In this document: piece by piece, positions 1-17,021 of the stretch | Numbering within the stretch: the first letter of the stretch is position 1 | Layout: the number at the start of each line of letters is the position of its first letter | Source: an uncultured Eubacteriales bacterium | Lineage (GTDB): Bacteria; Bacillota; Clostridia; Oscillospirales; Acutalibacteraceae | Length of the DNA stretch: 24,000 nt | Assembly (NCBI GenBank): GCA_964615315.1 | Contig: CAZTMZ010000003.1 | Coordinates: 45,565-69,564 of the forward strand | Reading direction: 5' to 3' | Translations under genes and position numbers: made by a program | The notes under the pieces: model-generated | The model's database searches: none | What the model was told of the DNA's origin: nothing | The model's input: the letters and a program-made list of their open reading frames with translations, nothing else

Positions 1-261
1 ACTCGTAATAAAAGAGTTGGTGATGTTTCTTGGTCTGAATTTCGTAGGATGTTAACCTATAAATCTCAATGGTATGGGAAACAATTATCTATTGTGGATA
101 GATATTTCCCGTCATCGCAGGCATGTCATGTGTGTGGATATAGAGATGGCAAGAAGTCTGAGGATATTAGAAGCTGGATTTGTCCTAATTGTAAAAGTAA
201 ATTAGATAGAGATGTAAATGCTGCTAAAAATATTCTGAACGAGGGATTAAAAATAATTTAG
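1..261 (+). CDS. tnpB: TnpB-family (IS200/IS605/IS607 OrfB) RNA-guided nuclease, C-terminal fragment; the 5' end lies outside the window
   Basis: Frame 1 is open from base 1 (TRNKRVGDVSWSEFRRMLTYKSQWYGKQL...). It contains a CxxC...CxxC zinc ribbon (CHVCG, CPNCK) followed by the RuvC-III motif DRDVNAAKNI. Stop TAG at 259-261. The layout matches the C-terminus of the full TnpB at 6370-7509. Confidence 0.9.
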   Translation, partial: TRNKRVGDVSWSEFRRMLTYKSQWYGKQLSIVDRYFPSSQACHVCGYRDGKKSEDIRSWICPNCKSKLDRDVNAAKNILNEGLKII

Positions 262-365
262 TAATATATATAAGAACCGTAGGAACTACGGGGATAGCCT
301 AGTGATACTGTATTCGTTGGAATACTTGACTAGGAACCCCGCGACTTTAGTCGTGGGAGGTTCAG
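262..365 (+). ncRNA. Structured right-end RNA: candidate TnpB omega-RNA scaffold and/or intron 3' segment
   Basis: Three clean hairpins. First: ccgtag(277-282)/ctacgg(286-291). Second, nested: cctagt(298-303)/actagg(329-334) enclosing gtattc(310-315)/gaatac(320-325). Third: cccgcgac(338-345)/gtcgtggg(350-357). The region ends ...ttcaG at 365, directly abutting coding sequence. The omega-RNA probably starts inside the tnpB 3' end; that 5' boundary is unknown. Confidence 0.55.
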
Positions 366-1553
366 GCTGGCACACTAAAGATTGGCGATGGTACAACAAC
401 ATATGAAAACTTACCTGCTATTCATGCGGGTGAAATTTCTTCTGCGGCCTCTCATTATGAGGGCGTTAAAGCAGAAGGCGAATCCGATATGGACGTCATC
501 GCTAGAGTTCTAGCAGATGATGAAGTTGGCGAAACTCGTTCGGATGATGTTTTTATTGTTAAAACTCTAATTGCAGAAGGCAAGTATTCTCATACTGCTT
601 ATGTTTACAATGGTTCTGCGTGGGTTGCTATGGACGGTAATTATGATGCTTCTAATGTTTATTTTGATAGTGATCTAATTGCTACGAGCGCAATCGGTAC
701 GGTTACGATTCCGTCTTCCGGTTCTGCGACTATTGAAGCGGCGGGTAAGAGTTTGAAGCAGGTTCTTTCTGCCATTCTTGCGCAAGAAAAGAATCCGACC
801 ACTACTCCGCCTGCTATTACTCTATCTGTTAGCGGTGGTTCTGGTGAGGTTGGTAGTTCTTATACTCTGCCTACTGCTACTCTAAAGCTTACCAGTGTTG
901 GTAGTTACACTTATGGCCCTGATACTGGTGTTACTGTTGAGGGCGGCAATGCTACTATTACTTGCGGCGATGAGTCTGCCACCAATAGTGGCGCTATGGT
1001 ATTAAATAGCACTCTGACACTAAAAGCCGTAGACGATAACTCTGTTTATTCTGATACAGCTAAGTCTTATACATTCAGTGCTTCTGCTGTTCATACTGAT
1101 GGTGCTATTCCTGTAACTAATATTGGCAATAAGTATGCTGCTGGTCAGATTAAGTCAGCTACGCTAACCAAGTCTGCGACCGCGACATTTACTGGCTATC
1201 GTTCTTTCTTCTATGGCATGGACGACACTACTGGTGAAATTGATAGTAAGCTAATTCGTGCCCTAACCAATGGCGGCAATTATAATGCATCCAAGACCTT
1301 CACCCTTAAAGCCGCAGATAAGGAAGGCGTAAAGCGTTTCATTGTTGCTTATCCTGCAAATAGTTCTCGTGGCGGCGTGAAAGAAGTTCTTTTGACGAGC
1401 ACAATGAATCTCGACATCACGGCAAACTACGTCCAACAAACCAATGTTGAAGTAGAGGGTCTAAATGGATATAACGCAATTCCATATAAAGTATTCGTTT
1501 ATTCTCCCGCTGAAATTGGTGCCGACGAAGTTCATAAAATTACTTTAGCGTAA
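366..1553 (+). CDS. Phage tail-fibre-like structural protein, downstream exon/segment (N-terminus upstream of the TnpB element and outside the window)
   Basis: The frame of ORF 489..1553 stays open back to 351. It reads AGTLKIGDGTTTYENLPAIHAG, the K-I-G-D-G...N-L-P tail-fibre N-terminal motif also present in the fibre starting at 20909 (FKIGDGITSVNNLPF). The track start at Met 489 is therefore an artefact. The exact junction (about 366) is inferred from the preceding G. Confidence 0.65.
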   Translation, partial: AGTLKIGDGTTTYENLPAIHAGEISSAASHYEGVKAEGESDMDVIARVLADDEVGETRSDDVFIVKTLIAEGKYSHTAYVYNGSAWVAMDGNYDASNVYFDSDLIATSAIGTVTIPSSGSATIEAAGKSLKQVLSAILAQEKNPTTTPPAITLSVSGGSGEVGSSYTLPTATLKLTSVGSYTYGPDTGVTVEGGNATITCGDESATNSGAMVLNSTLTLKAVDDNSVYSDTAKSYTFSASAVHTDGAIPVTNIGNKYAAGQIKSATLTKSATATFTGYRSFFYGMDDTTGEIDSKLIRALTNGGNYNASKTFTLKAADKEGVKRFIVAYPANSSRGGVKEVLLTSTMNLDITANYVQQTNVEVEGLNGYNAIPYKVFVYSPAEIGADEVHKITLA

Positions 1554-1567
1554 GGAGGTAAAGAATT

Positions 1568-3367
1568 ATGGCTACTATTAAGAAAAATTATACTCCTTCT
1601 TCTTTGCCTGTTGCGTTTAGCAGAGGTGAACCAATCCCGATTGACAAAAGTCTGGTTTGGTATTCTTTTGAAGAACTAAAAACGTATGCAGAAAGCGGAG
1701 CGACTGCGTATGTGGGCCAAGTTCTTTCTTTTGTAGATGAAGAAAGTGGTACTGCAACTGTTTATGTTATCGCGGACGAAGCTGGCACTCTTGAGAAGGT
1801 TGGAACCTCTCCTGTTGGCGACGAGTCTACTATTACCGTGGCTGAAAATGGCACTGTAAGCCTTTATGGTATTGATGGCATTGAAGTTGAAAGCAAGACT
1901 TATCAACCTTTACTGGTGAATGGTATTCTTACTTGGGTTGAACCTAGTGCAACTACCGTTGAAGGTCTAGCTACCGAAATCGAAGGCCTAAAGAGTAGAG
2001 TTGGCGCGGTAGAAACGTCTGTTACTGCAATCAATAACAAGATTGGTGAAGTTGCTGAAGATAAGACTGTTGTTGAAATGATCGCTGACGCCAAGGCTGA
2101 GGCAACTTATGATGATACTACCCTAGTTGGTCGTGTAGATACTCTTGAAGGAAAGGCTCATGAACATAGTAACAAAGATGTTTTGGATGGTATTACTTCT
2201 GATAAAGTTTCTGCATGGGATAAGGCGGAGCAGAATGCTGTTGATCGTGTACTAGGTTATCTTGCGGAAGACGAGATCAATACCGATTTTGATACCCTAA
2301 AGGAAGTTGCAGAGTGGATCGAATCTGATACAACTGCAAGCGCGGAACTAGTTATTCGTGTTTCTAATATTGAAAACGACTATCTAAAGGGTGCGGACAA
2401 AACTGCACTACAGGGCGAGATTGACGCTCTTGAGGCGTTTATTGGCGAACTACCCGAAGATGCGGTGTCTGAAACTGTAGTTGGCTATATCAAGGAAGTT
2501 GTAGGCGCTCTACAGATTGGTGATTATGCCAAGGCTTCTGATTTGACTGCTCTTGCCAATCGTGTTACTGCGCTCGAAAATGTTGGTGCAGAAAAGAACG
2601 TTATTGCAACTGTAGACGAAGGTCAATTTGCTATTGATGACTCCAGAAATCTAACTCTGCTAGATATTGCTATGGGTAAGGTTACTGGCCTGTCTGATGC
2701 GCTAGCTGGCAAAGTTGCTACTGAAGAAGGTAAGTCTCTGATTCAGGATACCTTAATTGAAAAACTAGAAGGCATTGCTACTGGCGCTCAGGTCAATGTT
2801 ATTAATAGCGTTGACACTGCACAGTTTGCGATTGACGAAGATAAGAAACTAACACTGCTTGACGTTGCAATGGGCAAGGTTACTGGTCTATCTGAAGCTC
2901 TTGCTACTAAAGTAGACAAGGTTGAAGGTTCTCGCCTAATTACTTCTGATGAAGCTTCCAAACTTGAAAGCCTAGTCCTGTCCGAAGACGGTAGCGTTGA
3001 AATCAGTGGTGAAGTTAATGCTTCTAACGTTAAGGAGCTTGGTTCTTGGATTACCACTAATAGAGGCACTGTTCTTGGTCTGTTGAGTGCTGAGAACGAA
3101 ACCAAACTAGATGGCGTCGAAGCTGGTGCTCAAGTTAACAAGATTGAGTCTGTAAAGGTCGGCGGCACACTGCTTGACATTACTGAAAAGAGTGTTAATA
3201 TTCCTGTGGCTACGGGCACTCTACTTGGTGTTGTTATGAGTTCTGCTGCGGAAAATAAAGTTGCAGTTGCAGAAGATGGCACTATGGAAGTTAATAGTGT
3301 TAACATCAATAAGCTAACGCAGAACGAGGGCGATTTCTTAGTTCTTGACGGCGGAGCTTCTGCCTAA
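1568..3367 (+). CDS. Tail-fibre protein (coiled-coil, with internal repeats)
   Basis: RBS aaggagg lies 8 nt upstream of the ATG. The protein has two copies of a roughly 60-aa repeat (QFAIDDSRNLTLLDIAMGKVTGLSDALAGKV / QFAIDEDKKLTLLDVAMGKVTGLSEALATKV). It shares the motifs HEHSNKDVLDGITSDKVSAWD and ALQIGDYAKASDLTAL with the next gene. Confidence 0.8.
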   Translation: MATIKKNYTPSSLPVAFSRGEPIPIDKSLVWYSFEELKTYAESGATAYVGQVLSFVDEESGTATVYVIADEAGTLEKVGTSPVGDESTITVAENGTVSLYGIDGIEVESKTYQPLLVNGILTWVEPSATTVEGLATEIEGLKSRVGAVETSVTAINNKIGEVAEDKTVVEMIADAKAEATYDDTTLVGRVDTLEGKAHEHSNKDVLDGITSDKVSAWDKAEQNAVDRVLGYLAEDEINTDFDTLKEVAEWIESDTTASAELVIRVSNIENDYLKGADKTALQGEIDALEAFIGELPEDAVSETVVGYIKEVVGALQIGDYAKASDLTALANRVTALENVGAEKNVIATVDEGQFAIDDSRNLTLLDIAMGKVTGLSDALAGKVATEEGKSLIQDTLIEKLEGIATGAQVNVINSVDTAQFAIDEDKKLTLLDVAMGKVTGLSEALATKVDKVEGSRLITSDEASKLESLVLSEDGSVEISGEVNASNVKELGSWITTNRGTVLGLLSAENETKLDGVEAGAQVNKIESVKVGGTLLDITEKSVNIPVATGTLLGVVMSSAAENKVAVAEDGTMEVNSVNINKLTQNEGDFLVLDGGASA

Positions 3368-3422
3368 TATAGATAATACAATATGAATGGAAAAATATAT
3401 TTTTTAAAGGAGAAATGTAATT

Positions 3423-5177
3423 ATGGCTACTACTAAAACTTTAAATACCAAAATTGCTCTACGTTATGATTCTTATGAAAATTGGATTGCAAATGACCCC
3501 GTACTTATGGCGGGTGAGTTGGCACTAGCTGCTGTTTCTGTTAAGCAGAATGACGTAGTAAACTTTGTGCCCTCTGTTCTTGTTAAGGCCGGTAATGGTA
3601 CTAGTAAGTATTCCGAGTTGGATTATATTTTTGCGAAGGCTGCTGATGTTTTAGAGGCTTGTAAGTCTGAATCTGGTCTAACTGCTTTTGTCAACAACGT
3701 CATTAACAATGCCGGTATTGCTACCGATGAGGCTCTGAATGCACTCAAGACTCGTGTCGCCGCTGCCGAGGGCGACATCGATACGCTAGAAGGTCTAGTT
3801 GGCGATACCGCTGTAGCTACTCAGATTTCTGACGCTATTGCCAAGCTAGATCTTGCCAATACCTATGACGCCAAGGGTTCCGCTGCCGCTGTTCAGTCTT
3901 CTCTAGACTCTTATAAGGCTTCTAACAATGCTGTTATTGCGGCCATCAAGGACGGCGCTGTTCTCGACAGCTTTAAGGACGTTGAAGATCAGCTTGCTAC
4001 TAAGGAAGCCAGTGGTGCTGCAGCTCAGGCTCTAGCCGATGCTAAGGAATATGCTGACGGTAAGGATGCTGCTATTGCCGCTGCTAAGAAGGCTGGCGAC
4101 GACGCTCAGGCCGATGTTGACGCTCTAGAGGCTGCTGTTGGTACTGTTCCTACTGGTAAAACCGTCGTTCAGATGATTTCCGAGGCTCAGACTGCCGCTA
4201 CTTATGATGATACCAAAGTTAAGGCCGACATCGCTCAGAATGCTTCTGATATTGATACCCTAGAGGCTCTTGTTGGTGATACTGCGGTTGCGACTCAGAT
4301 TAGTACTTCTGTAAATGCCGCCAAGACTGAGCTCAAGGGCGGTTCTTCTGATACTGCCTCTTCTGCTACTATTGCTGGCGCAAAGAAGTACGCTGACAGT
4401 CTAAATACTGCTATGGATGCTCGTATAGATGCTATTGAAGCGGCTGTTGGTGAGGGTGGCTCTGTTGGTGCTCAGATTGACGAAAAGATCGCGGCTCTAG
4501 ACGTAGCGGACACTGCTGTTGCTGGTCAGTATGTATCTGCTGTTTCTGAGACTGATGGTAAGATCACCGTCACTCGTGCAGCTCTGCCAGATTACACTGA
4601 GACCTATGCTGCCAAGAAGCATACTCATGCCGTTGCTGACGTAACTGGCCTGCAGACTGAGCTTGACAAGGTTTCTACCCTAATTGGTAGTGACGCTGGT
4701 AAGTCTGCTCGTACTATTGCAAACGAGGAACTTGCCGCGCAGCTAATTCCTGATGGTGCTAAGGAATCTCTAGATACCCTGCAGGAAATTGCACAGTGGA
4801 TTCAGGATCACCCCGACGACGCGGCTGCTATGAATTCTGCTATCGAAGCTCTGCAGACTAAGGTTGGCGATACTTCTGTGTCTGCTCAGATTACTGCGGC
4901 TATCGACGCGCTGAAGATCGGAGATTATGCGAAGGCCGCAGATCTTACTGCTGCTATTGCACGTATTGCTACTCTTGAAGGCGATTCTCATACTCACAGC
5001 AACAAGACCGTACTTGATGGCATTACATCTGATAAGGTAAATACTTGGGATGCATCTGTACAGACCGTTACTGGCGGCACTGGCTTGAAGGCAGCTAAGT
5101 CTGGCACTGGTGTTACCGTTGACTTTGATGATAGTGTCACTTTTGTGTTTGATTGCGGCGATAGTACTAATGCCTAA
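3423..5177 (+). CDS. Tail-fibre protein (Ala-rich coiled-coil), paralogous to 1568..3367
   Basis: RBS aaaggaga is present. The N-terminus is typical of fibres (YDSYENWIANDPVLMAGELALA...KAGNGTSKYSELDY). Shared blocks: HTHSNKTVLDGITSDKVNTWD, LDTLQEIAQWIQD, ALKIGDYAKAADLTAA. Confidence 0.8.
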   Translation: MATTKTLNTKIALRYDSYENWIANDPVLMAGELALAAVSVKQNDVVNFVPSVLVKAGNGTSKYSELDYIFAKAADVLEACKSESGLTAFVNNVINNAGIATDEALNALKTRVAAAEGDIDTLEGLVGDTAVATQISDAIAKLDLANTYDAKGSAAAVQSSLDSYKASNNAVIAAIKDGAVLDSFKDVEDQLATKEASGAAAQALADAKEYADGKDAAIAAAKKAGDDAQADVDALEAAVGTVPTGKTVVQMISEAQTAATYDDTKVKADIAQNASDIDTLEALVGDTAVATQISTSVNAAKTELKGGSSDTASSATIAGAKKYADSLNTAMDARIDAIEAAVGEGGSVGAQIDEKIAALDVADTAVAGQYVSAVSETDGKITVTRAALPDYTETYAAKKHTHAVADVTGLQTELDKVSTLIGSDAGKSARTIANEELAAQLIPDGAKESLDTLQEIAQWIQDHPDDAAAMNSAIEALQTKVGDTSVSAQITAAIDALKIGDYAKAADLTAAIARIATLEGDSHTHSNKTVLDGITSDKVNTWDASVQTVTGGTGLKAAKSGTGVTVDFDDSVTFVFDCGDSTNA

Positions 5178-5199
5178 TATGATATAAATTAATAATTTA

Positions 5200-5230
5200 G
5201 GACCGCTCTGTTATCTCAATAGGGCGGTTC
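5200..5230 (+). terminator. Stem-loop after the fibre gene (weak candidate terminator)
   Basis: ggaccgc(5200-5206) pairs with gcggttc(5224-5230), including one G-U pair. No clear T-tract follows. Confidence 0.3.
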
Positions 5231-5254
5231 TACTACTACTTCTGGGGTGATAAT

Positions 5255-5887
5255 ATGAGCTGTTATGTAGAAAAAGTAATAAAAATTGCAAAGGCCGAAA
5301 TCGGCTATTTAGAAAAGGCAAGCAATAGTAATCTTGATAATAAGACTGCAAATGCAGGAGATAAAAATTACACTAAGTACGCTAGGGATTTGGACAGCAT
5401 TTCTGGTTTCTACAACGGAAAGAAACAAGGGTATCCTTGGTGTGATGTGTGGTTTGACTGGCTGTTTGTTCAAGCATACGGCGTTGAAAGTGCAAAAAGA
5501 TTACTTTGTCAGCCTAACAAGTCGCTAGGTGCTGGTTGTCAGTACTCTATGAATTACTATAAATCAAAAGGACAGCTCTATACTACTCCTAAAATTGGAG
5601 ACCAAATATTTTTTAAAAATAATTCTGATGAGATTGTTCACACGGGGTTTGTGTACGATGTGGATAAAACATATGTATATACAATCGAGGGCAATACGTC
5701 TTCTGCCAGTGGCGTAGTCGCTAACGGTGGCGGTGTATTTGCTAAAAAATATAAATTAACATATGAACGTATCGCGTGTTATGGTAGGCCAGCTTATGAC
5801 ACGGTTGAAAATAAAAATAATACAGCCGCCCATGTGGCAAATGGAGGGACTTGTACTGTGAATCTTAATGTGTTGAAAAAAGGAAAT
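5255..5887 (+). CDS. Endolysin exon 1: CHAP/NlpC-P60-type catalytic domain
   Basis: Catalytic Cys context GYPWCDVW, His context EIVHTGFVY, and TIEGNTS. The exon ends ...VLKKGN on U5887. The TAA at 5888-5890 is the first triplet of the intron. Confidence 0.85.
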
Positions 5888-6345
5888 TAACTAATGCAAT
5901 TTCTAAGCCTAGGTGTAACCGGGCGATTGCATTAGTATAGTTTCCGTATACAGAAATGTGTATGAAAAATTACTCACTGAATTGCTGGAATCCCCTAAAG
6001 CCTATGACGCTACAACGCGAGTCGTAAGACCGAACGTGAATGCAGTGAAAACAGAAAAAAGACATAGGATGATATATGGTTAAATCCTAAGTATCGTAAC
6101 AATGGGCAATCAGCAGCCAAGCTCCCAATTATTGACAACACAATATGAATGTGCTATAATAGTTGTGGAAAAGGTTCAACGACTATCCCGCAAGGGAGTA
6201 GGACACAAGCGATTGGTGTCCGAAGTGGTGAGCACCTAAGTCTCTTATGAGATATGGCGAAGATATAGTCTGTGCTCTACTGAAAGGTAGAGGCGCGAAA
6301 GCGCAGCGAGGCGTAGCGAGCCGATAGGAAAACAACCTTTTCTTA
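5888..6345 (+). ncRNA. Group I intron ribozyme core (IA2-like, with P7.1/P7.2)
   Basis: P1: ggaaaU(5882-5887) pairs with Gtttcc(5940-5945). P1 carries a perfect 10-bp extension hairpin, ctaatgcaat(5891-5900)/attgcattag(5926-5935). P2: gtatac(5946-5951)/gtgtat(5958-5963). Core elements: P aattgctggaa (5980-5990), Q caatcagcagc (6107-6117), R gttcaacgactat (6174-6186), S aagatatagtct (6260-6271). P7 is gactat/atagtc. GNRA-capped hairpins follow: ccc-gcaa-ggg and gcgc-gaaa-gcgc. From memory, the 3' core closely resembles the phage T4 td intron (AACGACTATCCC...GAGTAGG...GAGATATAGTCTGCTC). Confidence 0.85.
6132..6160 (+). promoter_or_regulatory. Perfect sigma-A/sigma-70 consensus promoter inside the intron (P6 region), facing tnpB
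   Basis: TTGACA (6132-6137), a 17-nt spacer (6138-6154), then TATAAT (6155-6160). A TG at 6152-6153 gives an extended -10 (TGcTATAAT). The homologous ORF-less intron has only a short hairpin at this position. Confidence 0.6.
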
Positions 6346-6369
6346 TCATGAATGAGAGGAGGTGCAACG

Positions 6370-7509
6370 ATGATTAAATCTTTTATAGTAAGGTTATACC
6401 TAACGAGAATACAAGAGGAGCTGGCGTGGAAGCACGTTGGCGCTTGCAGGTTCATTTGGAATTATATGCTTGACTACCAGCAGAGGTTATACGAATCAGA
6501 AAAGAAGCATCTACCTGCCTTTAGTATGATAAAACTTCTAACTCCGTTGAAGAATGACGGAGAGCATGGCTGGCTGTACGACGTATCGAACTCTTCCTTG
6601 CAAACAATCTGCCGCGATTTGGACGGAGCCTATCAGTGTTTCTTTAAGAAGGCTGCCGGTTTTCCGAAGTTCAAGTCGCGTAAGAAGAGTAAATCGAATT
6701 TTCCTGTATGCTGCAATAGATTCTACTTTGCAGACGAGAACTTCGTACAGATACAGAAGCTCGGCAAGGTTCGTTTCAAAACGGACTTTGAGCTTCCGAT
6801 TGGACGCGAGCATAAGTTCCTGAACCCCAGAATTTCCTACGTTAATGGGAAATGGCTACTGTCTTTTAGCATGGAGTGCGAGAACCAAGCGCCTGTATTG
6901 ACAGACAAGCCCATGGGTATAGATTTAGGTATTAAGGATTTAGCAGTGGCAGAATTTGACGGAAGGCCCATTGTCTTTCATAACATCAACAAGTCGAAGC
7001 GTATGCGGCAGCTCAAGCAGAGGCAGAAGCACTTGCAGAGAAGTATCTCCCGCAAGTACGAAGCGAATCGCAAGGGCAACCAGTATGTGAAGACGAAAAA
7101 CATTGAAAGGCAGGAGGAACAACTCCGCAAGCTCTATTCTCGAATCACGAACATCCGAACAAACTACATCCACCAAACCACACACGTTTTGGTTTCTCTC
7201 CTGCCTTGTCGAGTCGTCATGGAAGACTTAAACGTACAAAGCATGATGAAGAACCGACATCTGAGCAAGGCAATTCAGGAGCAGGGGTTCTATGAATTCA
7301 TCCGCCAAATGCAGTACAAGTGCGAGTGGAACGGTATCGAGTTCGTTCAGGTTTACAGGTTTTATCCGAGCAGCAAGACATGTTCCAAATGCGGCAACGT
7401 CAAGCGGAACCTGAAGCTGTCGGACAGAACGTATCATTGTGATTCGTGCGGAGCAGTAATTGACCGAGATTACAACGCTGCCATTAACCTTAGCAGATAC
7501 GTAGTCTAA
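6370..7509 (+). CDS. tnpB: TnpB RNA-guided DNA endonuclease (379 aa)
   Basis: RBS aggagg lies 7 nt before ATG 6370; the track start at 6352 is unlikely. The N-terminus MIKSFIVRLYLTRIQEE..CRFIWNYML is typical of TnpB. RuvC-I GIDLGIKD, RuvC-II VVMEDLNV, zinc ribbon CSKCG...CDSCG, and RuvC-III IDRDYNAAINL are all intact. Confidence 0.92.
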   Translation: MIKSFIVRLYLTRIQEELAWKHVGACRFIWNYMLDYQQRLYESEKKHLPAFSMIKLLTPLKNDGEHGWLYDVSNSSLQTICRDLDGAYQCFFKKAAGFPKFKSRKKSKSNFPVCCNRFYFADENFVQIQKLGKVRFKTDFELPIGREHKFLNPRISYVNGKWLLSFSMECENQAPVLTDKPMGIDLGIKDLAVAEFDGRPIVFHNINKSKRMRQLKQRQKHLQRSISRKYEANRKGNQYVKTKNIERQEEQLRKLYSRITNIRTNYIHQTTHVLVSLLPCRVVMEDLNVQSMMKNRHLSKAIQEQGFYEFIRQMQYKCEWNGIEFVQVYRFYPSSKTCSKCGNVKRNLKLSDRTYHCDSCGAVIDRDYNAAINLSRYVV

Positions 7510-7633
7510 TTGAAGAGACTATGGTCTTGAGGTGTTGTTGCACCTTTAAGCTGTGGAGAGCCATACAAACTTGAGTAGTTACGACGAAAGAGGGCTTGAT
7601 GAAGCAGTAAGTTTAGTTTGCTAAACACAACAG
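7510..7633 (+). ncRNA. IStron 3' structured region: candidate omega-RNA scaffold ending at the 3' splice site
   Basis: Hairpins: agac/gtct, aggtg/cacct and gtttag-tttg-ctaaac. They lie just before ...acaacaG7633. The position relative to the tnpB stop matches the TnpB omega-RNA paradigm. The scaffold probably starts inside the tnpB 3' end. Confidence 0.55.
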
Positions 7634-7819
7634 AAAAATAGTTCCGTAAAAGCATTGCAAATATTGTTAATTGGAAATGGCTATTCTTGTGGCTCTTATG
7701 GCGCAGACGGAGATTTCGGTACGGGAACGTATAATGCGGTTGTAAAATTTCAAAAAGCAAAAAAGATTGGCGCAGATGGAATTGTTGGAGCACAAACATG
7801 GGAGAAGCTATTAAAGTAA
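7634..7819 (+). CDS. Endolysin exon 2: PG_binding_1 cell-wall-binding domain
   Basis: Translation: KNSSVKALQILLIGNGYSCGSYGADGDFGTGTYNAVVKFQKAKKIGADGIVGAQTWEKLLK*. This fits the PG_binding_1 pattern (V..LQ.LL...GY.....DG.FG..T..AV..FQ......DG.VG..T...L). It has no start codon or RBS of its own. The frame is closed upstream at TAA 7622-7624. Confidence 0.85.
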   Translation, partial: KNSSVKALQILLIGNGYSCGSYGADGDFGTGTYNAVVKFQKAKKIGADGIVGAQTWEKLLK

Positions 7820-7832
7820 GTGGTGATGCTTT

Positions 7833-8195
7833 ATGTGGGATAAAATATTCCAAAGAAGGCTAAAAAGGATTGAAAGGCGCGGAGAAAGGCAAAAGGCGAA
7901 ACAAGAGATGATTGACAAGTATGCTGAATATTATCCGAGCAAACGACGTAAGGTCTCAAATGTTATGCTTGTTGTAGTGGTGAGCGCGATTACGATTTAT
8001 ACCGTTGCAAGTTTTTGGTTGACATATGCGACAGGGATGTCTATAGATTCCACGCTTACTACGTGTTTTTATGCGTTTATGTCAAGTGAATTAATTGCCC
8101 TTGCAAGTATAAAGTGCAGCAAGGTTATTAAGAGTAAGGACGACAGTTTTTGTGAAGAAAATAAAATTGATAATGATGACGAAGTTGTTGGATAA
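7833..8195 (+). CDS. Holin-like small membrane protein (two predicted TM helices)
   Basis: It lies directly after the endolysin. The N-terminus is basic. Hydrophobic segments: VMLVVVVSAITIYTVASFWLTYA and TTCFYAFMSSELIALASI. The C-terminal tail is acidic. Confidence 0.5.
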   Translation: MWDKIFQRRLKRIERRGERQKAKQEMIDKYAEYYPSKRRKVSNVMLVVVVSAITIYTVASFWLTYATGMSIDSTLTTCFYAFMSSELIALASIKCSKVIKSKDDSFCEENKIDNDDEVVG

Positions 8196-8209
8196 AAGGA
8201 GTGAAATGT

Positions 8210-8551
8210 ATGGAAAATTGGGTCAATATTGTAGTATCTATTCTTTCTGGGTTATGCGTGTGTGTTCCTTTAGTTGTAAAATTAGTTTCAGTAGTTGAAC
8301 AGTGTGTTCGCGAAAAGAATTGGAATGAATTAGTAAGTCTCATCATTCAATTTATGAACGAGGCTGAGTCTCTTTTTTCGTCCGGTGAGGAACGAAAAAA
8401 TTATGTCATGATTGCCATTAAGGCCAGTGCAGACACAATTGATTATGATATTGATATGGATATTGTTAGTAATATGATTGATGATTTGTGCGCTATGAGC
8501 AAGATTGTGAATGCTCCAAAAGAAGTTGAAGAAGCGAAGGCAGAGGGTTAA
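8210..8551 (+). CDS. Holin-like protein (N-terminal TM; possibly LL-H-type holin family)
   Basis: RBS aaggag lies 8 nt before ATG 8210; the track's GTG at 8201 sits on the RBS. TM segment: WVNIVVSILSGLCVCVPLVVKLV. Lysis-cassette context. The family assignment is from memory only. Confidence 0.45.
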   Translation: MENWVNIVVSILSGLCVCVPLVVKLVSVVEQCVREKNWNELVSLIIQFMNEAESLFSSGEERKNYVMIAIKASADTIDYDIDMDIVSNMIDDLCAMSKIVNAPKEVEEAKAEG

Positions 8552-8637
8552 TTCTTTCCGTTGTTATTACTACTACGAAAAATTACATTAATATAATGTT
8601 TTAATCTAATATAAGAATAAGAATGGAGTGACGTGCT

Positions 8638-8853: not shown

Positions 8854-10275
8854 ATGGGTAAGAAGTTAACTAAAGAAGAATTTATTAAAAGGGTTTATGA
8901 AAAAAATGAGCATGTAAGAAATGGAGAACTTGAGATTCGTGGAGAGTTCGTTGGGACAAAGGAACCAATAGAATGTTTTTGTACAATCCACCATGTTTTA
9001 TGGAACCCTAGACCGGACGATTTGTGGAAAGGAATTGGGTGTAGACAATGTGGGAGTGTAAAAACAGCGGACAAAAGGCGTGTAGATGCGGACACAATTA
9101 ATAGACGATTAGAACAAATAAATAATGGCGTTAAAATGATTGGTAAATGCTTCGGCGTTAGAGCGGAAACTGAGTTTCAATGTAGTTTGAATCATACATG
9201 GAGAGATCGACCTATTGATATTTTGAACGGCGTAGGATGCCCATATTGTAGCGGACATCGTGTTTGGGTTGGATTTAATGATTTATGGACAACACGTCCT
9301 GATGTTGCGAAGTTGTTATTGAATTCTAACGATGGCTATAAATATACATACGGTTCTAATAAAAAATTAGAATTTATTTGTCCAATTTGTGGGTCTATAA
9401 TAATAAAGTCCGCAAAAGAAGTCTGTCAAAATGGATTAGTTTGTCAACTTTGCTCTGATGGTATTTCATATCCAAATAAGCTTGGCAGGTTGTTATTAAC
9501 ACAGCTCAATGTAGAGAATATAAGATATGAGTGGAGCCCGGATTGGATCCAATCTTATTCTTACGATAATTATTTTGAATATTGTGGAAAAGCATATATT
9601 TTAGAGTTTGACGGTGGACTTGGGCATGGTAAAAAGAAATATAAATCAAATGAGCGCGATGTTATTGGCAAAGAAAGAGATATTTATAAAGATCGTTTGG
9701 CAGCAGATCATAATATAAAAGTTATAAGAGTCGATTGCGATTACACTGGAAAATGTAATGATCGTTTTATGTATATAAAAAATAATATTTTACAAAGTGA
9801 ATTGTGTAGCATTTTTGATTTGTCTTGTGTTGATTGGGAATATTGTGATTGTAATGCGCAAAAAACATTGATAAAACAAGTTGCGGATTTATACAATCAA
9901 GGTTTAAGCGTATCAGAAATACAAAAGATTGTAGGTTATTATATTAATACTATCCGTAAATGGTTAACTACGGCATCTAAATATAATTTATGTAATTATA
10001 ATAGAAAAGAGTCTAAAAGAAGAACAACTGATTCTATATACCGTTATATTAATCAATATTCTACAAATGGAGAATTTGTGAGAACATATAAATGTGTAGC
10101 TGAAGCCAGTGAAATTACTGGAGTTGATGATTCTTCGATTTATGGATGTTGTAAACATTATTCTGGGCATAAAACCGCAGGTGGATTTTTATGGTTTTAT
10201 GCTACAGATCTATATCAACCAGATAAATCAAAGATTATTGAATTAGCAATACAAAATGAATGTAAGGAGGTGTAA
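8854..10275 (+). CDS. Free-standing protein resembling a homing endonuclease: Zn-ribbon repeats + Vsr/PD-(D/E)XK-like core + HTH/NUMOD1-like DNA-binding C-terminus
   Basis: RBS ggagg is present. There are three Cys/His ribbon modules (CTIHH..CRQCG; CSLNH..CPYCSG; CPICG..CQLCS). The core motif YILEFDGGLGHG...ERD..KD is typical of Vsr/DUF559-type nucleases. An HTH follows (GLSVSEIQKIVGYYINTIRKWL). The C-terminus reads INQYSTNGEFVRTYKCVAEASEITGVDDSSIYGCCKH..KTAGGFLWFY, typical of phage homing-endonuclease DNA-binding repeats. The gene looks visibly AT-rich. Confidence 0.55.
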   Translation: MGKKLTKEEFIKRVYEKNEHVRNGELEIRGEFVGTKEPIECFCTIHHVLWNPRPDDLWKGIGCRQCGSVKTADKRRVDADTINRRLEQINNGVKMIGKCFGVRAETEFQCSLNHTWRDRPIDILNGVGCPYCSGHRVWVGFNDLWTTRPDVAKLLLNSNDGYKYTYGSNKKLEFICPICGSIIIKSAKEVCQNGLVCQLCSDGISYPNKLGRLLLTQLNVENIRYEWSPDWIQSYSYDNYFEYCGKAYILEFDGGLGHGKKKYKSNERDVIGKERDIYKDRLAADHNIKVIRVDCDYTGKCNDRFMYIKNNILQSELCSIFDLSCVDWEYCDCNAQKTLIKQVADLYNQGLSVSEIQKIVGYYINTIRKWLTTASKYNLCNYNRKESKRRTTDSIYRYINQYSTNGEFVRTYKCVAEASEITGVDDSSIYGCCKHYSGHKTAGGFLWFYATDLYQPDKSKIIELAIQNECKEV

Positions 10276-10278
10276 CCG

Positions 10279-12250
10279 ATGGAAATTATAAACGCTTTTA
10301 AAACTGTAACTGAACAAATTAAATCTTGGGTTGACGAGAATAAAGTGCAAAAAGTAAGCGGGAAAGGACTTTCTACAAATGATTATACCAATATAGATCG
10401 CCAAAAAGTAGAAGAAATGCCAAATGACTTAATGATTCTTAATGGAAAATTATATCTTGCACAGGATGGAACCCCAATTGACAGTTCTGCGGTACAGCTT
10501 CCTGAAGGTGGTGGCGGAGGCGGTGGTTCGAGTGCTACGATTACATTAAAGAATTTGCTAGATTCGTCCATCATAACATCTGCCGTTGGAAATTCAGTAG
10601 TTTTAAAATTCAGTTTTGCATCGTCTGAGGCAGATAGTGGTATGGCTTATATTTATGTCGGCGGTGTTCTGAAGGGTACGGCAGCTATAATTGCCGGAAG
10701 CAATACGTTGGATATTTCAGAATATGTTGGAGAAGGTTCCAATGAAGTTAAATTAACATGTATGGACGTGTATAGCAATAGTAAAAGCTTGGCGTATACT
10801 GTCAACATGGTTTCGTTGAGAGTGACATCTACTTTTGATGATTCTCAAGTTTATTCGGGCGATATTAGTGTTCGTTATATTGTTTATGGTGCAGTAGAAA
10901 AAACTATGCATTTTGTGGTCGATGACACAGATACCACTGTAACAGTAAGTGAAACTGGAAAACAACGAACACAGGTTTTACCAGCAATGTCGCATGGAAC
11001 ACATTTATTAAAAATTTATGCAACGGCTACAATTAATGGTGTTGAAGTTAAAAGCAACGAATTATTGTTTGATATATTGTGTGCCGTGGAAGGTGCGACT
11101 ACTCCGATGATTTCTTCTGCCTGTAACGTTATATCTGTAACCCAAGGAGAATTGATTAATATTCCATTTGTGGTTTATGATCCTTCTAATATGGAAACTG
11201 AAATTACTCTTACTATATCGCAGAATAACGAAATATACTTCACTTCTATGAGAACCGTAGATCGTACAAAACAAACTTGGAGTATAAGAAATTATCCTGT
11301 TGGCGAAGTAACTTTTACTATTACATATGGTGCTATTAGTAAAAGTCATATGATAACTGTTGCAGAGAATAATATTGATGTTTCTGTAAAAACAACGGAT
11401 TTAGAATTCCAACTTAGGGCGGCAGGTAAATCCAACGAAGATACGGATCGCGACACTTGGACTAGCGGCGACGTAACTACTATGTTCGAATACTTAAACT
11501 GGGAATCTACTGGTTGGGTTGCGGACGATGACGGTGATGTTGCTTTAAGGTTGTCTGGTGATGCAAAGGCAACAATTAATTTTATGCCGTTTAAATCAGA
11601 TGCTCGTCAGACAGGTAAAACAATTGAAATGGAATTTGCCATTCGTGATGTTAATAATCGCGATGCCGTTGCGATTTCTTGCTTGAATGGCGGTATTGGT
11701 TTTACTGTTACTGCAGATACGTTTGTAATGACAAGCGAACAGACGAAAATTAGTTGCAATTATACTGATGAAGAAAAGATAAGAATTGCTGTTGTAATTG
11801 AGCCACGTAGTGAATACCGTATGATGAGCGTTTATTTGAATGGTGTTTTATCTGGTGTTGAACAGTACCCCGAAACAGATAACTTTCAACAAACGTCTCC
11901 TACGAATATCGTTATTGGTTCTGAATATTGTTCTGTTGACTTATATACCATCCGTTCTTATGATGTAGCATTAACCGCAGATGAAATTAAAGACAATTAT
12001 ATTGCCGATATTACTGACATTAGTGAGAAAGCAGCGTTATATTCGGACAATGATATCTATGATGCGTTTGGTAATTTAAGCTTTTCTGCACTGAAGGATA
12101 AAATACCTGTGTTGGTTATTACGGGCACTTTGCCAACATATAAGGGAGATAAGAGAAAAGTAACTATTGCGTATACAGATCCACTAAATCCCAGTCTGGA
12201 TTTTGAGGATAGCGCAACAATTGATGTACAAGGCACATCAAGTCAGTATT
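10279..12250 (+). CDS. Giant tail/receptor-binding protein, exon 1
   Basis: RBS aaggagg is present. Fibre motif KVSGKGLSTNDYTNIDRQKV, a Gly7 linker and beta-rich domains. The exon ends ...IDVQGTSSQY + t at U12250. The track ORF runs on 35 nt into the intron, to TGA at 12283-12285. Confidence 0.8.
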
Positions 12251-12620
12251 CGAAATTTGGATACCGTATTGAGAAATCAGTATGAAAAAATACTCGTTTA
12301 ATTGCTGGAACACCCTAAAGACAAATAAACTACAACGTAAAGATGAAATATGCTTAAGCGTGAATGTTATGAAAATAGAAAAAAATATTTGTATGAGAGC
12401 GAGGTTAAATCCCCTGCTCTTTTTTAATGGGCAATCAGCAGCGAAGCCGTGAATAACGGAACGTTCAACGACTATTCTGAAAGGAAGTAGGCTGTAAGCG
12501 ATTGACAGTCGAAATGGCGAGGACCAGAAATGGTTAAGATATAGTCTATACTCAATGGAAACATTGAGAAGGAGAAATCCTTAGCACAGGAGTAGCGTCC
12601 TATGTTTAATACAATAGATG
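12251..12620 (+). ncRNA. ORF-less group I intron (370 nt), homologous to the IStron ribozyme
   Basis: P1: gtatUc(12246-12251)/ggatac(12259-12264), with U12250-G12260 at the splice site. P2: gtattg(12266-12271)/cagtat(12278-12283). Core elements: P aattgctggaa (12300-12310), Q caatcagcagc (12432-12442), R gttcaacgactat (12463-12475), S aagatatagtc (12536-12546). GAAA-capped P9 hairpins: ctcaatg-gaaa-cattgag and aagga-gaaa-tcctt. The terminal G12620 is the only G that both lies after the in-frame TAG (12593-12595) and restores the frame. Confidence 0.85.
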
Positions 12621-15600
12621 TTCGTAAAAACTGGAAAATTAAAACTTCAGAATATCATACATTAGATTTAGATCAAGTTCCTACAAAAATATTTTGCTGG
12701 AAGGCTGACTATGCTGAGGCGACTGGTAGCCACAACACGAGTACGGCTAATTATGCTCATATATTATATGGAGATGCTAAAACTCCGCCGCAGGAAGCCG
12801 ATTCTCGTGTAAGAACTACTGTTTATGGAAGACCAAGTGTAATTTTTCATAAAGCAGATAGTAGTTCGGACCCCGTATTTTACGGAAAGGCAAATGCAAA
12901 TATAGATAAAGGAGCACTTGAATGCTTTGGTTTTACTGAAGATTATTCAGATGCCCAGTGTGTAGAATTTTGCAATAACGTTTCAGAGGCATGTTTATTC
13001 CACAAAGAGATATCAGATGATTGGTCTGATGACTTTGAATTTCGTCAGCCCGATGGATACACGGATATCTCTGACTTCAAAATTGTACACGATTGGACAG
13101 TTAGCACATGGCAAGATGGGGCAACTGGAACTGCATTGAATGGATCGTATACAGGCATTGATGGTACTGTTTATACTAATGATACTGCGGCATATAGATT
13201 AGCAAAATTCAAGAAAGAATTTACAGATTATTATAATTTGGATTTTTGTTTAGTTTATTATGTGTTGACGTTTGTGCTAATGTGCGTAGACCAACGTGCG
13301 AAGAATATGTTTTTAACAACTTGGGACAAGGTTCATTGGGAGCCGTGGTTTTATGATAATGATACAATTTTAGGCATTAATAACGAAGGTAGATTGGTCT
13401 TCAGTCCTTTTTTGGAGGATGACGATCAGCTTGATGGAGCAAATGTTTTTAATGGAGCCACAAGTGCCCTTTGGGTGAATTTTAGAGAATCTTTCCCTAA
13501 TGAGATTCAGGCTTTGTATGCTTCTTGGCGTAGCGAAGGATTGTTAAGTTATGATCAGATAATTGAATATTTTATAACTCGCCAAACTGACAAATGGTCT
13601 ATTTCAGTTTACAGTGAAGATATAGATTTTAAGTATGTCTCTTTGCTGAGAGATGATGATGATGGTACTTACTTATATCAAGTAAGAGGTACTGGTGAAG
13701 AACATTTAAGATACTTTACTAAAGCTAGACTTAATTACTTAGACTCTAAGTGGTGCTGCGGTGATTATCCAAGTGATTACGTTTCGTTGCGTATTTATAC
13801 TCCAATGGATGAAAATAATAATCCACTAACTAATTTGCCAGTAGCTGCCAATCCAGATATTACGATAACACCTTATGAAAACACCTATGCAGGCGTTCAA
13901 TTTGGCGCAGGTAGTAACATTAATCAATATAAGGCGTATCAAAATGTTCCAATTACGCTTAAGTGGACAATGAATGGTTCTCCTAATGACCTTGAGACTT
14001 CGGTATTCCCGGCTTCTCAGATTAGTTCTTTGGGTGATTTGTCTCCTTTGTATTGCGGCACGATTAATGTTAGCAAAGCAGAGAAGTTAACTGAATTAAT
14101 TGTTGGCAATCAAACAAAAGGTTATTCCAATAACAATCTAACTGAATTGGCAGTTGGTGCCAATAACCTATTACAAAAAGTAGATATTTGTAACTGTCCT
14201 AATCTAGTTAAACCATTAGCGCTTTCTAACTGTCCAAATATTCAAGAAATTTATGCAATAGGTTCTGGTATTACTGGTCTTGAGTTGCCAACCTCTGGTT
14301 ATCTAAAGAAGGTGTATTTGCCAAATACTTTAACCAACCTAACAGTAACCAACCAACAATATATTGAAGAATTCGTTCTCGAAGGTTATGACAATTTGAC
14401 TACTCTTCGTATTGAAGATACTGTTAATATTCCTGTCGAAGACATAATGCTTAATGCGCCGAATTTGAATCGTATTCGTCTTATTGACGTTCAATGGGAA
14501 GCAGAGTCTGAGGCAGCGCTTGTTCAAACAATTGAAAAATTTAAGTCTTGTTTGGGTTTGGATGCTAACGGCAATAATACTGAGAACGCCATTGTTACCG
14601 GTAAAGTGCATGTCGCAGAGAAAGTCTCCAATGAAGTTTTCGGTGATGTTTATAATAGTTTCCCAGATCTTGTTATAGATGACGGCAGTGAAGAAATCTA
14701 TATTCTTAACTACAAAGACCGTGATGGTAAAATATTATATTCTACTAGAGTCGCAGAAGGGGCGAATGCGATAGATCCGATTGCACAGGGTTATATTGAG
14801 ACCCCAGACCCAATTATAACAGACACATATAGATATGAATTCGTCGCTTGGAGTACATTGCCAACCAACATTCAGAGGCATTATGTAATTATTGCGCAAT
14901 ACCACACTAAGTTTGCTATTAAATTTTATAATGAAGAAACATTATATTATACTCAGTGGTCCGTACAAGGCGACCCAGCTATCGACCCTGTTGTATCCGG
15001 CGCAATCACAGCTCCAACCAAGTCTGGCACGTCCGATATAAGCTATAAGTTCTCTGGTTGGGACAACCTGCCAACGAACGTTCAATCCACAGTTAACGTA
15101 TATGCTCAATACGATACCTATTGGGCTGTAAGATTCTGGAACGACAGTGTATTGTATTTAACAGAGTGGATCATCGAAGGTGGCAAACCCGTTAATCCTA
15201 GCACTTATTCCGAGGATTATACCAATCCAACTCGTACAAGTACGGCGCAATATGACTATCACTTCTCTAGTTGGGATGGTGACTTTGATACCGAAGTAAC
15301 ATCAACAAGAGAATTCTACGCCGTATATTCCAGTACAATTCGTAGATATAATGTCTACTTCTACAATGATAACGAACTGCTATACACCGTAGAAAATGTC
15401 CAATATGGTAGCAGTGCGTCTTATAGTGGTAGCACACCAACAAAACTCGGCGTTGAAGATCCAGACGAATACGTATTTAAGGGCTGGCTGCCTGCGCCTG
15501 AAAATATCACTGGCGAAACTAAATGTTATGCGCTGTATAAATTTACTGGTTACCTATTTGGTAAGTTAGGCAAGACTGATGATGACGATCAAGGCTATGG

Positions 15601-16321
15601 AACAGTTGATAGTCCAAACTGGGATGCGATCAATGCCTATTGGACAACTATTGCTGCTGATGTCTCATCCTACCAAAATGGTATTTTGGCAGAAGATGAT
15701 TTTACTGCAAAATATCAAATTGGTGGCCGAATGATTGTTCCAATTAACCTTTCGGATGGTACATCTACTATGGCAGATGTTGAAATTATTGCACACAACC
15801 ATGATAATCTAGCGGACGGCTCTGGTAAGGCGGCTTTAACATTCTTCTGTAAAGATCTTCCGCAGGTTCAGCGTGCTATGAATGAGTCTACTGTACTTAC
15901 TGGTTATAAAGATAGTATAATGCGTACTTTTGTCAATGAAGAATTGTTTGGCGTTCTTCCCAATGAACTAACGTTGGTAATCAAACCCGTAAAGAAAATT
16001 TCTGATGGTGGTGCGCAAAATCAGACACTAGTAACTACGACGGATTATTGTTGGATTGCGTCATATGATGAAGTTGGTTTTACTTCTGGTGGCTCAAATA
16101 TTTCTGGGCAGGGAGAGTTGTATGATGAAATATTTTCTAACAATAACAGTCGTAAAAAGTATATAACTGATAGCACCGATACTGGTGGATGGTGGCTGCG
16201 CACGTCAGTTCGTTCTACAAATTTAAGCAGCACTATGTTTTACAGAGTTCAGAAGTCGGGTGCGGCATATACGGATATTCAGACGAATCAATTTTATGTT
16301 GCATTTGGTTTTTGTATCTAA
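12621..16321 (+). CDS. Giant tail/receptor-binding protein, exon 2: CotH-like domain, LRR region, four Listeria/Bacteroides-type repeats, C-terminal WWLR domain
   Basis: The splice junction reads GTSSQY-F-RKNWKIK, which fits a CotH-type motif. A CotH-like core is present (DQRAKNMFLTTWDKVHWEPWFYDNDTILG). LRRs span about 14040-14480 (LTELIVGN..LTELAVGAN..CPNLVKPLALSNCPNIQEIY). Repeats span 14699-15538. The C-terminus contains GGWWLRTS. The spliced product is 1890 aa. Confidence 0.8.
14699..15538 (+). repeat. Four tandem coding repeats of about 70 aa (Flg_new / Listeria-Bacteroides repeat-like)
   Basis: The units start YILNYKD, FAIKFYN, WAVRFWN and YNVYFYN. Each ends in Y.F.(A/G/S)W....V......YA.Y (EFVAWSTLP..IIAQY; YKFSGWDNLP..VYAQY; YHFSSWDGDF..FYAVY; YVFKGWLPAP..CYALY). 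Confidence 0.7.
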
Positions 16322-16418: not shown

Positions 16419-17021
16419 ATGACTGGTTTTGAAGAATTTTTAACTCTATTTGGAGGCATTACGGTTTCTCAAATTGTCGTTTTTGTGTTTGCGGTTATCT
16501 TTTTATTCTCTGTCTATAAAGAGATTAAAAAGTACGTCAACGTAAAAATTAAAGAACAGCAAACAAAAGCAGATGAAGAAAAGAATAACAAAAAGAAACT
16601 TGAAGAAGCGTGGGTCGCAACACAAAAGTATCCAGAGTATCGTAAAAAAAGTTTAGAAATACAGGAACTTCTTGAGGGCGAAATCCAAGAAGTAAAAAAC
16701 ACAGAAGAGACGGTAACAGAAGAATTAAAGAAACTGTCTTTACGTCTTGAAAAGATGGAGGAAGACACGAAACGCCGTGAGCGTAATCGTCTCAGAGATC
16801 TGCTGCTGAATCATTATCGTCATTATACAAACAAAGAACTAAATCCGTCACAATCATGGACGAGCATGGAAGCGGAGACATTCTGGGCGTTATTTAGCGA
16901 TTATGAGGATGCAGGTGGAGATGGTTACATGCACACTACGGTTCAGCCAGAAATGGAACGTTTACTAGTTGTGAACGTAGGTGAACTACCACAGACCGTA
17001 ACGGCCTGTGGCTTCCATTAA
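16419..17021 (+). CDS. Hypothetical membrane-anchored coiled-coil protein; its 3' end runs into the IS left end
   Basis: RBS gggagg is present. N-terminal TM segment ITVSQIVVFVFAVIFLFSV, followed by a charged coiled-coil. The last roughly 18 codons (from about 16966) and the stop codon lie inside the IS200/IS605 left-end hairpin structure. Confidence 0.6.
   Translation: MTGFEEFLTLFGGITVSQIVVFVFAVIFLFSVYKEIKKYVNVKIKEQQTKADEEKNNKKKLEEAWVATQKYPEYRKKSLEIQELLEGEIQEVKNTEETVTEELKKLSLRLEKMEEDTKRRERNRLRDLLLNHYRHYTNKELNPSQSWTSMEAETFWALFSDYEDAGGDGYMHTTVQPEMERLLVVNVGELPQTVTACGFH

Follow-up and report, generated by a model that had tools for sequence, protein, structure and literature searches.

How can a phage endolysin gene be expressed when a 1746-nucleotide (nt) insertion separates its two domains, and what kind of element is the insertion? 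This question is raised by a 24,000-nt stretch of contig CAZTMZ010000003.1 (assembly GCA_964615315.1, from an uncultured Eubacteriales bacterium of the Acutalibacteraceae), which is referred to below as the window. A sequence-only reading of it had proposed that a complete IStron, i.e., a group I intron carrying tnpB and an omega RNA, splits the endolysin gene. We found that window 5888-7633 (1746 nt, or 3 x 582) interrupts a gene for a CHAP-like plus PG_binding_1 endolysin, and the anatomy of the insertion, its exact site, its conservation and the covariation of its RNA could be observed directly in comparisons with relatives. The insertion is very probably a transposase-less IStron that is active now or was so until very recently; its self-splicing would restore the endolysin mRNA, and its TnpB, together with an exon-derived guide, would maintain and spread it by homing.

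The interrupted endolysin gene

The insertion site was set by comparison with uninterrupted alleles. The closest of these is carried by L071, a fragment of a syntenic phage, which encodes a 272-amino-acid (aa) uninterrupted protein (P0241) belonging to the 90%-identity cluster of the truncated window open reading frame (ORF). BLAST aligned L071 3925-4633 with window 5177-5887 (94% nt identity to exon 1) and L071 4634-5493 with window 7634-8490, the break falling exactly between 5887 and 7634. There is no room for these boundaries to slide, as T5887 and G7633 are different bases, and so are T5888 and A7634. The empty alleles L071, L061 and L062 read AAAAAAGGAAAT followed directly by AAAAATAG across the junction; the more distant L061 and L062 (77% identity) both have AAAAAAGGAAAT followed by AAAAATA. 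When joined, the window exons differed from the 819-nt L071 gene at 43 nt (94.7% identity), with 11 aa changes and no indel, and encoded a 272-aa protein whose match to the PHROG endolysin family phrog_9589 spans the junction (residues 4-269, E 1.7e-35). Uninterrupted homologues of 260-290 aa also aligned without gaps at this point (VLKKGN before and KNSSVKALQ after the junction in the window, against VLKKGNKNNSVRALQ). Both the gapless homologues and the L071 break bear out the proposal that removal of 5888-7633 gives a seamless 272-aa two-domain endolysin. Another assembly, L001 (Logan SRR10277277), has the same interrupted arrangement.

The insertion opens with an in-frame TAA (5888-5890), at which ORF 5255-5890 ends after 211 aa. 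This ORF had been described as a CHAP-only protein. A Pfam search with the N-terminal domain returned no CHAP match even at E <= 10. The label is based on PF05257 in many homologues (60-81% identity overall, 79-81% for the exon 1 homologues), on the phrog_9589 match, and on the invariant residues C63, H129, E145 and N147. On the other side of the insertion, 7634-7816 has no start codon and matches PG_binding_1 (Pfam PF01471, E 9e-16) in a compatible frame, as predicted. The idea that the insertion lies at the domain linker had to be corrected: it is located 2 residues before the Pfam match, at the N-terminal edge of PG_binding_1, and the variable linker is ~12-28 residues upstream. In uninterrupted two-domain homologues, P0241 included, PG_binding_1 is contiguous with the catalytic domain.

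Parts of the element

The ribozyme core (coordinates of all features are shown in Table 1) matched Rfam Intron_gpI (RF00028) with 84.0 bits (gathering 50, E 2.5e-20) along the full model, positions 1-253, and the P, Q, R and S elements that had been recognised between the exons aligned to its consensus. The IA2-type hairpins P7.1 and P7.2, between P7 and P3' (UCCCGCAAGGGA and GGACAC...GUGUCC at 6186-6223), were assigned by inspection with the general model only. Homologous cores could be aligned in 15 relatives. The P1 helix proposed earlier, exon GGAAAU with intron GUUUCC, also gained support: U5887 forms a wobble pair with G5940 at the 5' splice site and five further pairs follow, and region 5876-5950 folds at -29.3 kcal/mol (z -5.7), a stability reached by 0 of 200 shuffled sequences. 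The sequence of the P1 extension hairpin was not conserved among relatives, and the internal guide sequence tracked the exon end in L017, L021, L065 and L024. For example, at junctions set independently by empty sites, the exon and guide strands were GUGGCU/GGUCAC in L017, GCGGCU/GGUCGC in L021 and CUAU/GUAG in L003. The terminal G at the 3' splice site is G7633, as set by the empty allele L071.

At the gathering threshold, Rfam missed the group I intron of the published CbISt4 locus, which served as positive control. The absence of an Rfam group I match in some relatives does not mean absence of an intron, because this control was missed as well; besides, 4 of 5 full-flank relative loci without a match contained the ribozyme core motifs. 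A permissive Rfam scan of window 1-8000 revealed no additional RNA family. Further downstream, a second group I intron (window 12239-12568, Rfam 74.6 bits) is ORF-less and located between ORFs 10279-12285 and 12602-16321, which match successive parts of phrog_14959 and apparently are pieces of one giant DUF6273-containing gene. In its P4-P6 region, this second intron is closely similar to the IStron ribozyme.

The tnpB gene was intact, as previously read. The hidden Markov model search found the Pfam domains HTH_OrfB_IS605, OrfB_IS605 and Cas12f1-like_TNB; the protein matched a PHROG transposase family at E 5e-113, and its best solved structure was 8iaz_A (E 3.9e-66, versus 4.5e-45 for ISDra2 TnpB). 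RuvC residues D185, E285 and D367 and zinc finger residues C338, C341, C357 and C360 all aligned to 8iaz_A. The deposit is entitled simply "Transposase", so our identification of 8iaz as ISFba1 TnpB is based solely on residue offsets. Two other TnpB sequences were observed. At window 10-234 there is the 3' end of a more distant tnpB that is truncated by the start of the window (35-38% identity over residues 300-374); it is followed at 271-387 by a weak, sub-threshold Rfam match to Ref70 (33.9 bits), which might be its guide RNA. A second 379-aa TnpB (P0231), 70% identical to that of the IStron, is not in the window but may belong to the same phage, which may therefore carry a second IStron.

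The structured 3' region ending in G, noted in the sequence-only reading, was identified as an omega RNA scaffold by a match to RAGATH-18 (RF03064) at 7550-7610 with 61.1 bits (gathering 44.9). RAGATH-18 is the guide-RNA core of IS607-type TnpB (PMC11061315). A pseudoknot of five pairs joins the loop of the first hairpin (7536-7540, UGUUG) to 7628-7632 (CAACA), just before the terminal G. For the covariation analysis, 24 family members were aligned over the final ~134 bases of the intron and the following 20 exon bases. In the scaffold, 98% of cells were paired and 14 pairs had compensatory changes; none of 500 shuffles reached the observed covariation, and slid controls collapsed. The pseudoknot was paired in all 24 sequences. 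The pair formed by the penultimate intron base covaried perfectly (C-G in 18 sequences, U-A in 6) and separates CAG from the commoner CGG ends: the window element ends in ACAG, and most relatives end in ACGG. Because the pseudoknot partner covaries, the CAG end is a compensated and selected state. A rough neighbour-joining tree of TnpB indicated that the CAG/CGG switch arose more than once; a single "CAG subfamily" was dropped, as the CAG end marks no one clade in this tree.

In the same alignment, conservation was high up to the 3' splice site and gone beyond it, which is the pattern that a fixed scaffold followed by a site-specific guide should produce. An exon-located guide has been described for CboIStron and ISFba1 (bioRxiv 10.1101/2023.11.20.567912; PMC11061315). 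Also, four closely related TnpBs were located after ...GGCT at four different sites, and this observation suggests a clade-specific target-adjacent motif (TAM) that doubles as the P1 exon strand. Of the 43 differences from L071, 6 are clustered in the 33 nt that follow the insertion (L071 4634-4666 versus window 7634-7666), a stretch that includes the presumed TnpB target. Such clustering could reflect target escape or a co-conversion edge, with weak statistics. In another relative, L067 (5516-8270, minus strand), three RAGATH-18 matches occur within 2.8 kb and two of them are followed by the ...ACAG end motif, suggesting tandem or nested elements.

Table 1. Location of the endolysin exons and of observed, candidate and presumed features of the inserted element in the window.
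Feature	Position	Strand	Description
Exon 1 of endolysin	5255..5887	+	211 codons: CHAP-like catalytic domain, variable linker, conserved GGTCTVNLNVLKKGN segment
Presumed TAM GAAAT	5883..5887	+	Also P1 exon strand; assumed by analogy with IStron and TnpB biology (PMC13565253; bioRxiv 10.1101/2023.11.20.567912)
Whole IStron (group I intron)	5888..7633	+	1746 nt, in-frame TAA first, terminal G7633 last
P1 extension hairpin	5888..5939	+	5888-5889/5938-5939, A5937 bulged, 5890-5900/5926-5936; minimum free energy fold
Internal guide sequence GUUUCC	5940..5945	+	Pairs with exon GGAAAU (5882-5887)
Group I ribozyme core	5940..6292	+	P2-P9 with P7.1 and P7.2, IA2 type; Rfam RF00028
Candidate sigma-70 promoter	6132..6160	+	TTGACA-17 nt-TATAAT, extended -10 TG; 12/12 consensus match
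tnpB ribosome-binding site	6358..6368	+	GGAGG 6358-6362, overlaps AGGUGCAAC 6360-6368, the 5' strand of a candidate long-range stem enclosing tnpB
tnpB	6370..7509	+	379 aa, intact; predicted RNA-guided nuclease by Pfam, PHROG and structure match
Omega RNA (reRNA) scaffold	7502..7633	+	Hairpin 7529-7546, RAGATH-18 core 7550-7610, terminal hairpin 7611-7626, pseudoknot
Presumed omega RNA guide	7634..7653	+	AAAAAUAGUUCCGUAAAAGC, same as first 20 nt of exon 2; 20-nt length assumed
Exon 2 of endolysin	7634..7819	+	PG_binding_1 cell-wall binding domain and stop; collinear with L071 4634-4819
Presumed TnpB target			GAAAT + AAAAATAGTTCCGTAAAAGC

Family, known systems and a proposed mechanism

Judged from sequence comparison, the element is a member of a large, mostly phage-borne and transposase-less family. 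We found 7540 TnpB homologues at E <= 1e-50, the best 120 of which were 70-78% identical over essentially the full length, and pattern scans located 42 loci on IMG/VR viral contigs and 14 on genome contigs. Relatives above ~52% identity almost always had the ribozyme upstream and RAGATH-18 downstream, and more distant ones had RAGATH-18 only. A megablast search of the phage collection returned only 50-62-nt ribozyme-core matches in Enterocloster phages and no close relative. With regard to tnpA, no ORF lies between the ribozyme end (6292) and the tnpB start (6370), and the gene was found neither in the gene calls of L059 and L060 nor in close relatives. L015, a 35%-identical homologue from Selenomonas, has a serine recombinase gene immediately upstream, which ties the lineage to IS607. 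Other shared features are 5' exons ending in U (GGAAAT, GGAAT, TGAAT, GGCT and CTAT), a tail of only ~23 nt after RAGATH-18, and a left end in which nothing outside the ribozyme is conserved.

That elements of this family were recently gained or lost is directly evident from L017 and L021, two near-identical viral contigs with flanking proteins 98-100% identical, each of which has an element where the other is empty (L017 1950-3800 and 4880-4990; L021 780-880 and 1900-3800). Relatives of the window element appear to move between phages in the way a homing intron does. Copies occur in different host genes, and the exact window copy is known at one site only. A GG target for the relatives was considered and rejected: it was contradicted by reading-frame analysis of L017, and the reciprocal empty sites show exons ending in ...GGCT or ...TAT. 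Reading-frame continuity as such proved too noisy for finding 5' junctions and failed for the window, where exon 2 is short; it was replaced by guide pairing and empty sites.

The window element was compared with known IStrons. In published IS607-type (group B) IStrons, the insertion follows GG, the 3' terminus is CGG and the ends are long and AT-rich (PMC4227781), and our analysis of CbISt4 of phage c-st (L002) confirmed this signature (insertion after ...AGAGG, CGG end, long AT-rich tail). Like BcISt1, CboIStron and CbISt3/CbISt4 of this group (PMC4227781; bioRxiv 10.1101/2023.11.20.567912), the window element begins with a group I IA2 ribozyme, continues with tnpB past the ribozyme core, and closes with an omega RNA of the RAGATH-18 type that stops at the 3' splice site, so that the guide falls in the 3' exon. 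CbISt4, in which RAGATH-18 was also detected here, additionally shares the TAACTAA start and residence in a phage genome. In contrast, many group B elements carry a serine-recombinase tnpA or its remnant, and the window element has neither; their 5' exon ends in G at a GG target, whereas that of the window ends in U (GGAAAT); they end in CGG and the window element in CAG; the tail after RAGATH-18 is 23 nt in the window and about 80 AT-rich nt in CbISt4; and the stem around their ORFs is AU-rich and 15-34 base pairs (bp) long, compared with a balanced 9-bp candidate here. CsISt1 of Clostridium sporogenes (PMC4227781), compared by description only, has tnpB (ORF B) as its only ORF, an IS607 assignment and a CAG 3' end, but it is chromosomal and lies downstream of an AG site rather than a U.

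Group A (IS200/IS605-type) elements, represented by CdISt1 of Clostridioides difficile, have in common with the window an exon ending in ...AT, a U·G pair flanked by base pairs, a ...CAG 3' end, a short balanced stem enclosing the ORF, and a hairpin in P1. Their signatures are a Y1 tnpA or fragment, targets TTGAT, ATTAT or TTTAT, and the end TCAG, of which GAAAT and ACAG of the window share only the terminal AT and CAG; no Y1 tnpA fragment was found in 5888-7633. They also differ in omega RNA, since the RAGATH-18 type seen in the window has been reported beside IS607 TnpB and nowhere else (PMC11061315), and in TnpB, which in the window is closer to 8iaz_A than to ISDra2. The TnpB-reRNA complex of ISFba1 (PMC11061315; taken as 8iaz) has the same domain order, RuvC triad and RAGATH-18 core, but comes from an intron-less IS607 element with TAM AGGAG, as opposed to the presumed GAAAT. 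Finally, phage group I introns that carry homing endonuclease genes (for a review, see PMC3984707) resemble the window in that an intron resides in a phage protein gene, a nuclease gene is in its periphery, and related phages have filled and empty alleles. The difference is that their protein recognises DNA, whereas the window nuclease is predicted to be RNA-guided with a target taken from the flanking exon. The claim of a complete element made of group I intron, tnpB and omega RNA, inserted in phase, is supported: the covariance model, the domain search and the intron-less homologues, all suggested beforehand as checks, came out in its favour. There is no tnpA, and the ends do not carry the IS607-type GG and CGG. 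With its ribozyme on the 5' side, an ORF B derived from an insertion sequence towards the 3' end, and splice sites at the very ends of the insertion, the window element is an IStron in the broad sense only, and may behave as a homing intron rather than as a transposon.

A candidate promoter may separate nuclease expression from splicing. The site at 6132-6160 is the only 12/12 match within 5000-8600, and the alignment placed it in a P6 insertion unique to the window copy, which folds as an extension of the P6 hairpin. Transcripts starting there would lack P1-P5 and therefore be unable to splice in cis. Presumably it is an internal promoter for tnpB mRNA and omega RNA that is independent of the lysis-gene transcript. 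The L017 group has a 10/12 site in a P8 insertion; internal promoters as a family-wide feature were rejected, since none was found in L060 or L065. An alternative pairing was also detected: 7537-7545 (GUUGCACCU) is complementary to AGGUGCAAC at 6360-6368, and the two could form a 9-bp stem of balanced composition that encloses the entire tnpB ORF. In L026, L003 and L005 (with a bulge in L005), C-to-U in the 5' strand is matched by G-to-A in the 3' strand. To a limited extent, this observation supports switching between two structures, an intron form and a guide-RNA form, which would fit the antagonism between splicing and guide RNA that was demonstrated experimentally for CboIStron (bioRxiv 10.1101/2023.11.20.567912; PMC13521648).

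We propose the following mechanism. P1 would present U5887, and splicing of 5887 to 7634 would restore the mRNA for the 272-aa two-domain endolysin, whereas an unspliced lysis transcript would stop at the first codon of the intron and yield the 211-aa catalytic part only. Lysis may depend on the ribozyme, as previously suggested; unspliced RNA would still give this catalytic domain. Unspliced RNA, or RNA from the 6132-6160 promoter, may serve as tnpB mRNA and omega RNA, with a scaffold ending at G7633 and a guide taken from the start of exon 2. TnpB and guide would then cut intron-less alleles of co-infecting relatives (GAAAT followed by AAAAATAGTTCC...), and recombinational repair would copy the element in, i.e., homing. 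The choice between the two RNA fates could depend on 7536-7546. If this segment pairs with neighbouring bases and with those immediately preceding the 3' splice site, the guide-RNA form would result and the splice site would be hidden; if it pairs with 6360-6368 over the tnpB ribosome-binding site, the intron form would result, making splicing and guide-RNA formation alternatives. At the level of the lineage, we consider it possible, at somewhat below even chances, that in these transposase-less phage IStrons TnpB with its exon-derived guide serves as the homing endonuclease of the group I intron, and possibly in interference against intron-less co-infecting phages, and that some copies, including the window copy, acquired their own promoter to make nuclease and guide independent of host-gene transcription and splicing.

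Competing explanations and wider setting

Several observations weigh against an active, homing IStron. Splicing, omega RNA production, promoter use, the TAM, TnpB cleavage and homing are all predictions from the DNA sequence. A P10 helix joining exon 2 at its start to bases 5' of G5940 was looked for by eye, with no convincing candidate. The TAM is presumed by analogy, and the promoter is a consensus match only. Moreover, the guide does not match the closest empty alleles perfectly: mismatches occur at positions 9 and 18 in L071, at 8, 12, 17 and 18 in L061, and at 8, 12 and 15 in L062. The long-range stem has two or three compensated cases to two mismatched sequences, which is thin support. 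Also, the absence of a transposase and of a conserved left end, together with a 23-nt tail, leaves unexplained how the family colonises new sites.

We gave just short of even chances to a closely related interpretation, namely an ordinary mobile group I intron whose homing endonuclease gene has been replaced by tnpB; such an intron would never move as a DNA transposon, and "insertion sequence" would be a misnomer for its lineage. The lack of tnpA in the window element and its close relatives agrees with this interpretation, as do the left end without conserved sequence outside the ribozyme, the short tail compared with that of CbISt4, and the 5' exons, which end in U and base-pair to the guide sequence in the manner of normal group I introns; a 2026 review raised intron homing for IStrons lacking TnpA (PMC13565253). 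What separates it from the preferred IStron explanation is mainly the name and a single step, transposition, and less the substance. The clear derivation of TnpB and omega RNA from the IS607 lineage (8iaz_A match, RAGATH-18, serine recombinase next to L015) speaks against it, and homing alone does not account for family members in many unrelated genes.

It is unlikely that the element is instead a decaying relic which inactivated the cell-wall binding half of the endolysin, leaving the phage to lyse cells with the 211-aa catalytic fragment. Such a relic would agree with the in-frame TAA at the intron start, by which a CHAP-only protein is the default translation product, with the failure to find P10 by eye, and with the lack of an identical second copy in the databases searched. 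Yet exon 2 is open, in phase and 86% identical in nt to L071 across and beyond the gene, and the element retains all core elements of the ribozyme, an intact tnpB frame with its catalytic residues, and the pairings of the omega RNA; compensation of the CAG 3' end in the pseudoknot would not be expected of a dead element. An assembly artefact, in which IStron-bearing reads were wrongly joined into the endolysin gene, is the least credible of the explanations. The assemblies are metagenomic, related elements are abundant in the same kind of sample, and the L059 run has a neighbouring accession number. Against a chimera, the same junctions were recovered in two assemblies, the insertion is exact to the base and in phase, and the guide sequence is complementary to this particular exon end. 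An active or recently active transposase-less IStron is the explanation we prefer.

IStrons, including phage-borne ones such as CbISt3 and CbISt4 of Clostridium botulinum phages c-st and D-1873, are already published (PMC4227781); what is added here is a clean transposase-less copy and a lineage with U-ending exons. A literature search, incomplete in coverage, turned up neither an IStron in an endolysin gene nor a U-ending, transposase-free phage lineage. IStrons have reportedly been known since CdISt1, with phage occurrence said to date from a 2014 report and the TnpB/omega RNA logic from 2023-2024. To our knowledge, they are the one known case of a single RNA choosing between ribozyme and guide RNA, and we know of studies of them only in clostridial chromosomes with a transposase present. 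The locus described here is a compact natural transposase-free system on a phage, in a gene with an easy read-out (lysis), for which a naturally empty allele at 95% identity is available as recipient, along with relatives that have reciprocal filled and empty sites. It could be used to test how the balance between splicing and guide RNA is set, and whether TnpB alone drives intron homing between phages, a possibility raised in the 2026 review (PMC13565253). Besides, the catalogue gains predicted small RNA-guided nucleases with non-GG TAMs, presumed GAAAT and GGCT. Were the element inactive, it would merely be one more annotated IStron.

Other mobile elements were observed in the vicinity. Just downstream of the lysis cassette, window 8854-10275 contains a free-standing 473-aa ORF resembling HNH/NUMOD1 homing endonucleases, and an ORF of equal length (473 aa) is located at the corresponding position in L071 (5872-7290). 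L071 also has an additional 198-aa ORF (3345-3941, weak Mtd_N match) between a 584-aa gene and the endolysin, which the window lacks. A complete IS200/IS605-type IscB element occupies window 16981-18905. It consists of a HEARO omega RNA (16981-17197, 99.5 bits), whose start overlaps the 3' end of ORF 16419-17021, an IscB with RRXRR and HNH domains (17269-18543), and a Y1 TnpA (18501-18905). Guide-RNA nucleases of both the TnpB and the IscB type are thus found in one phage region.

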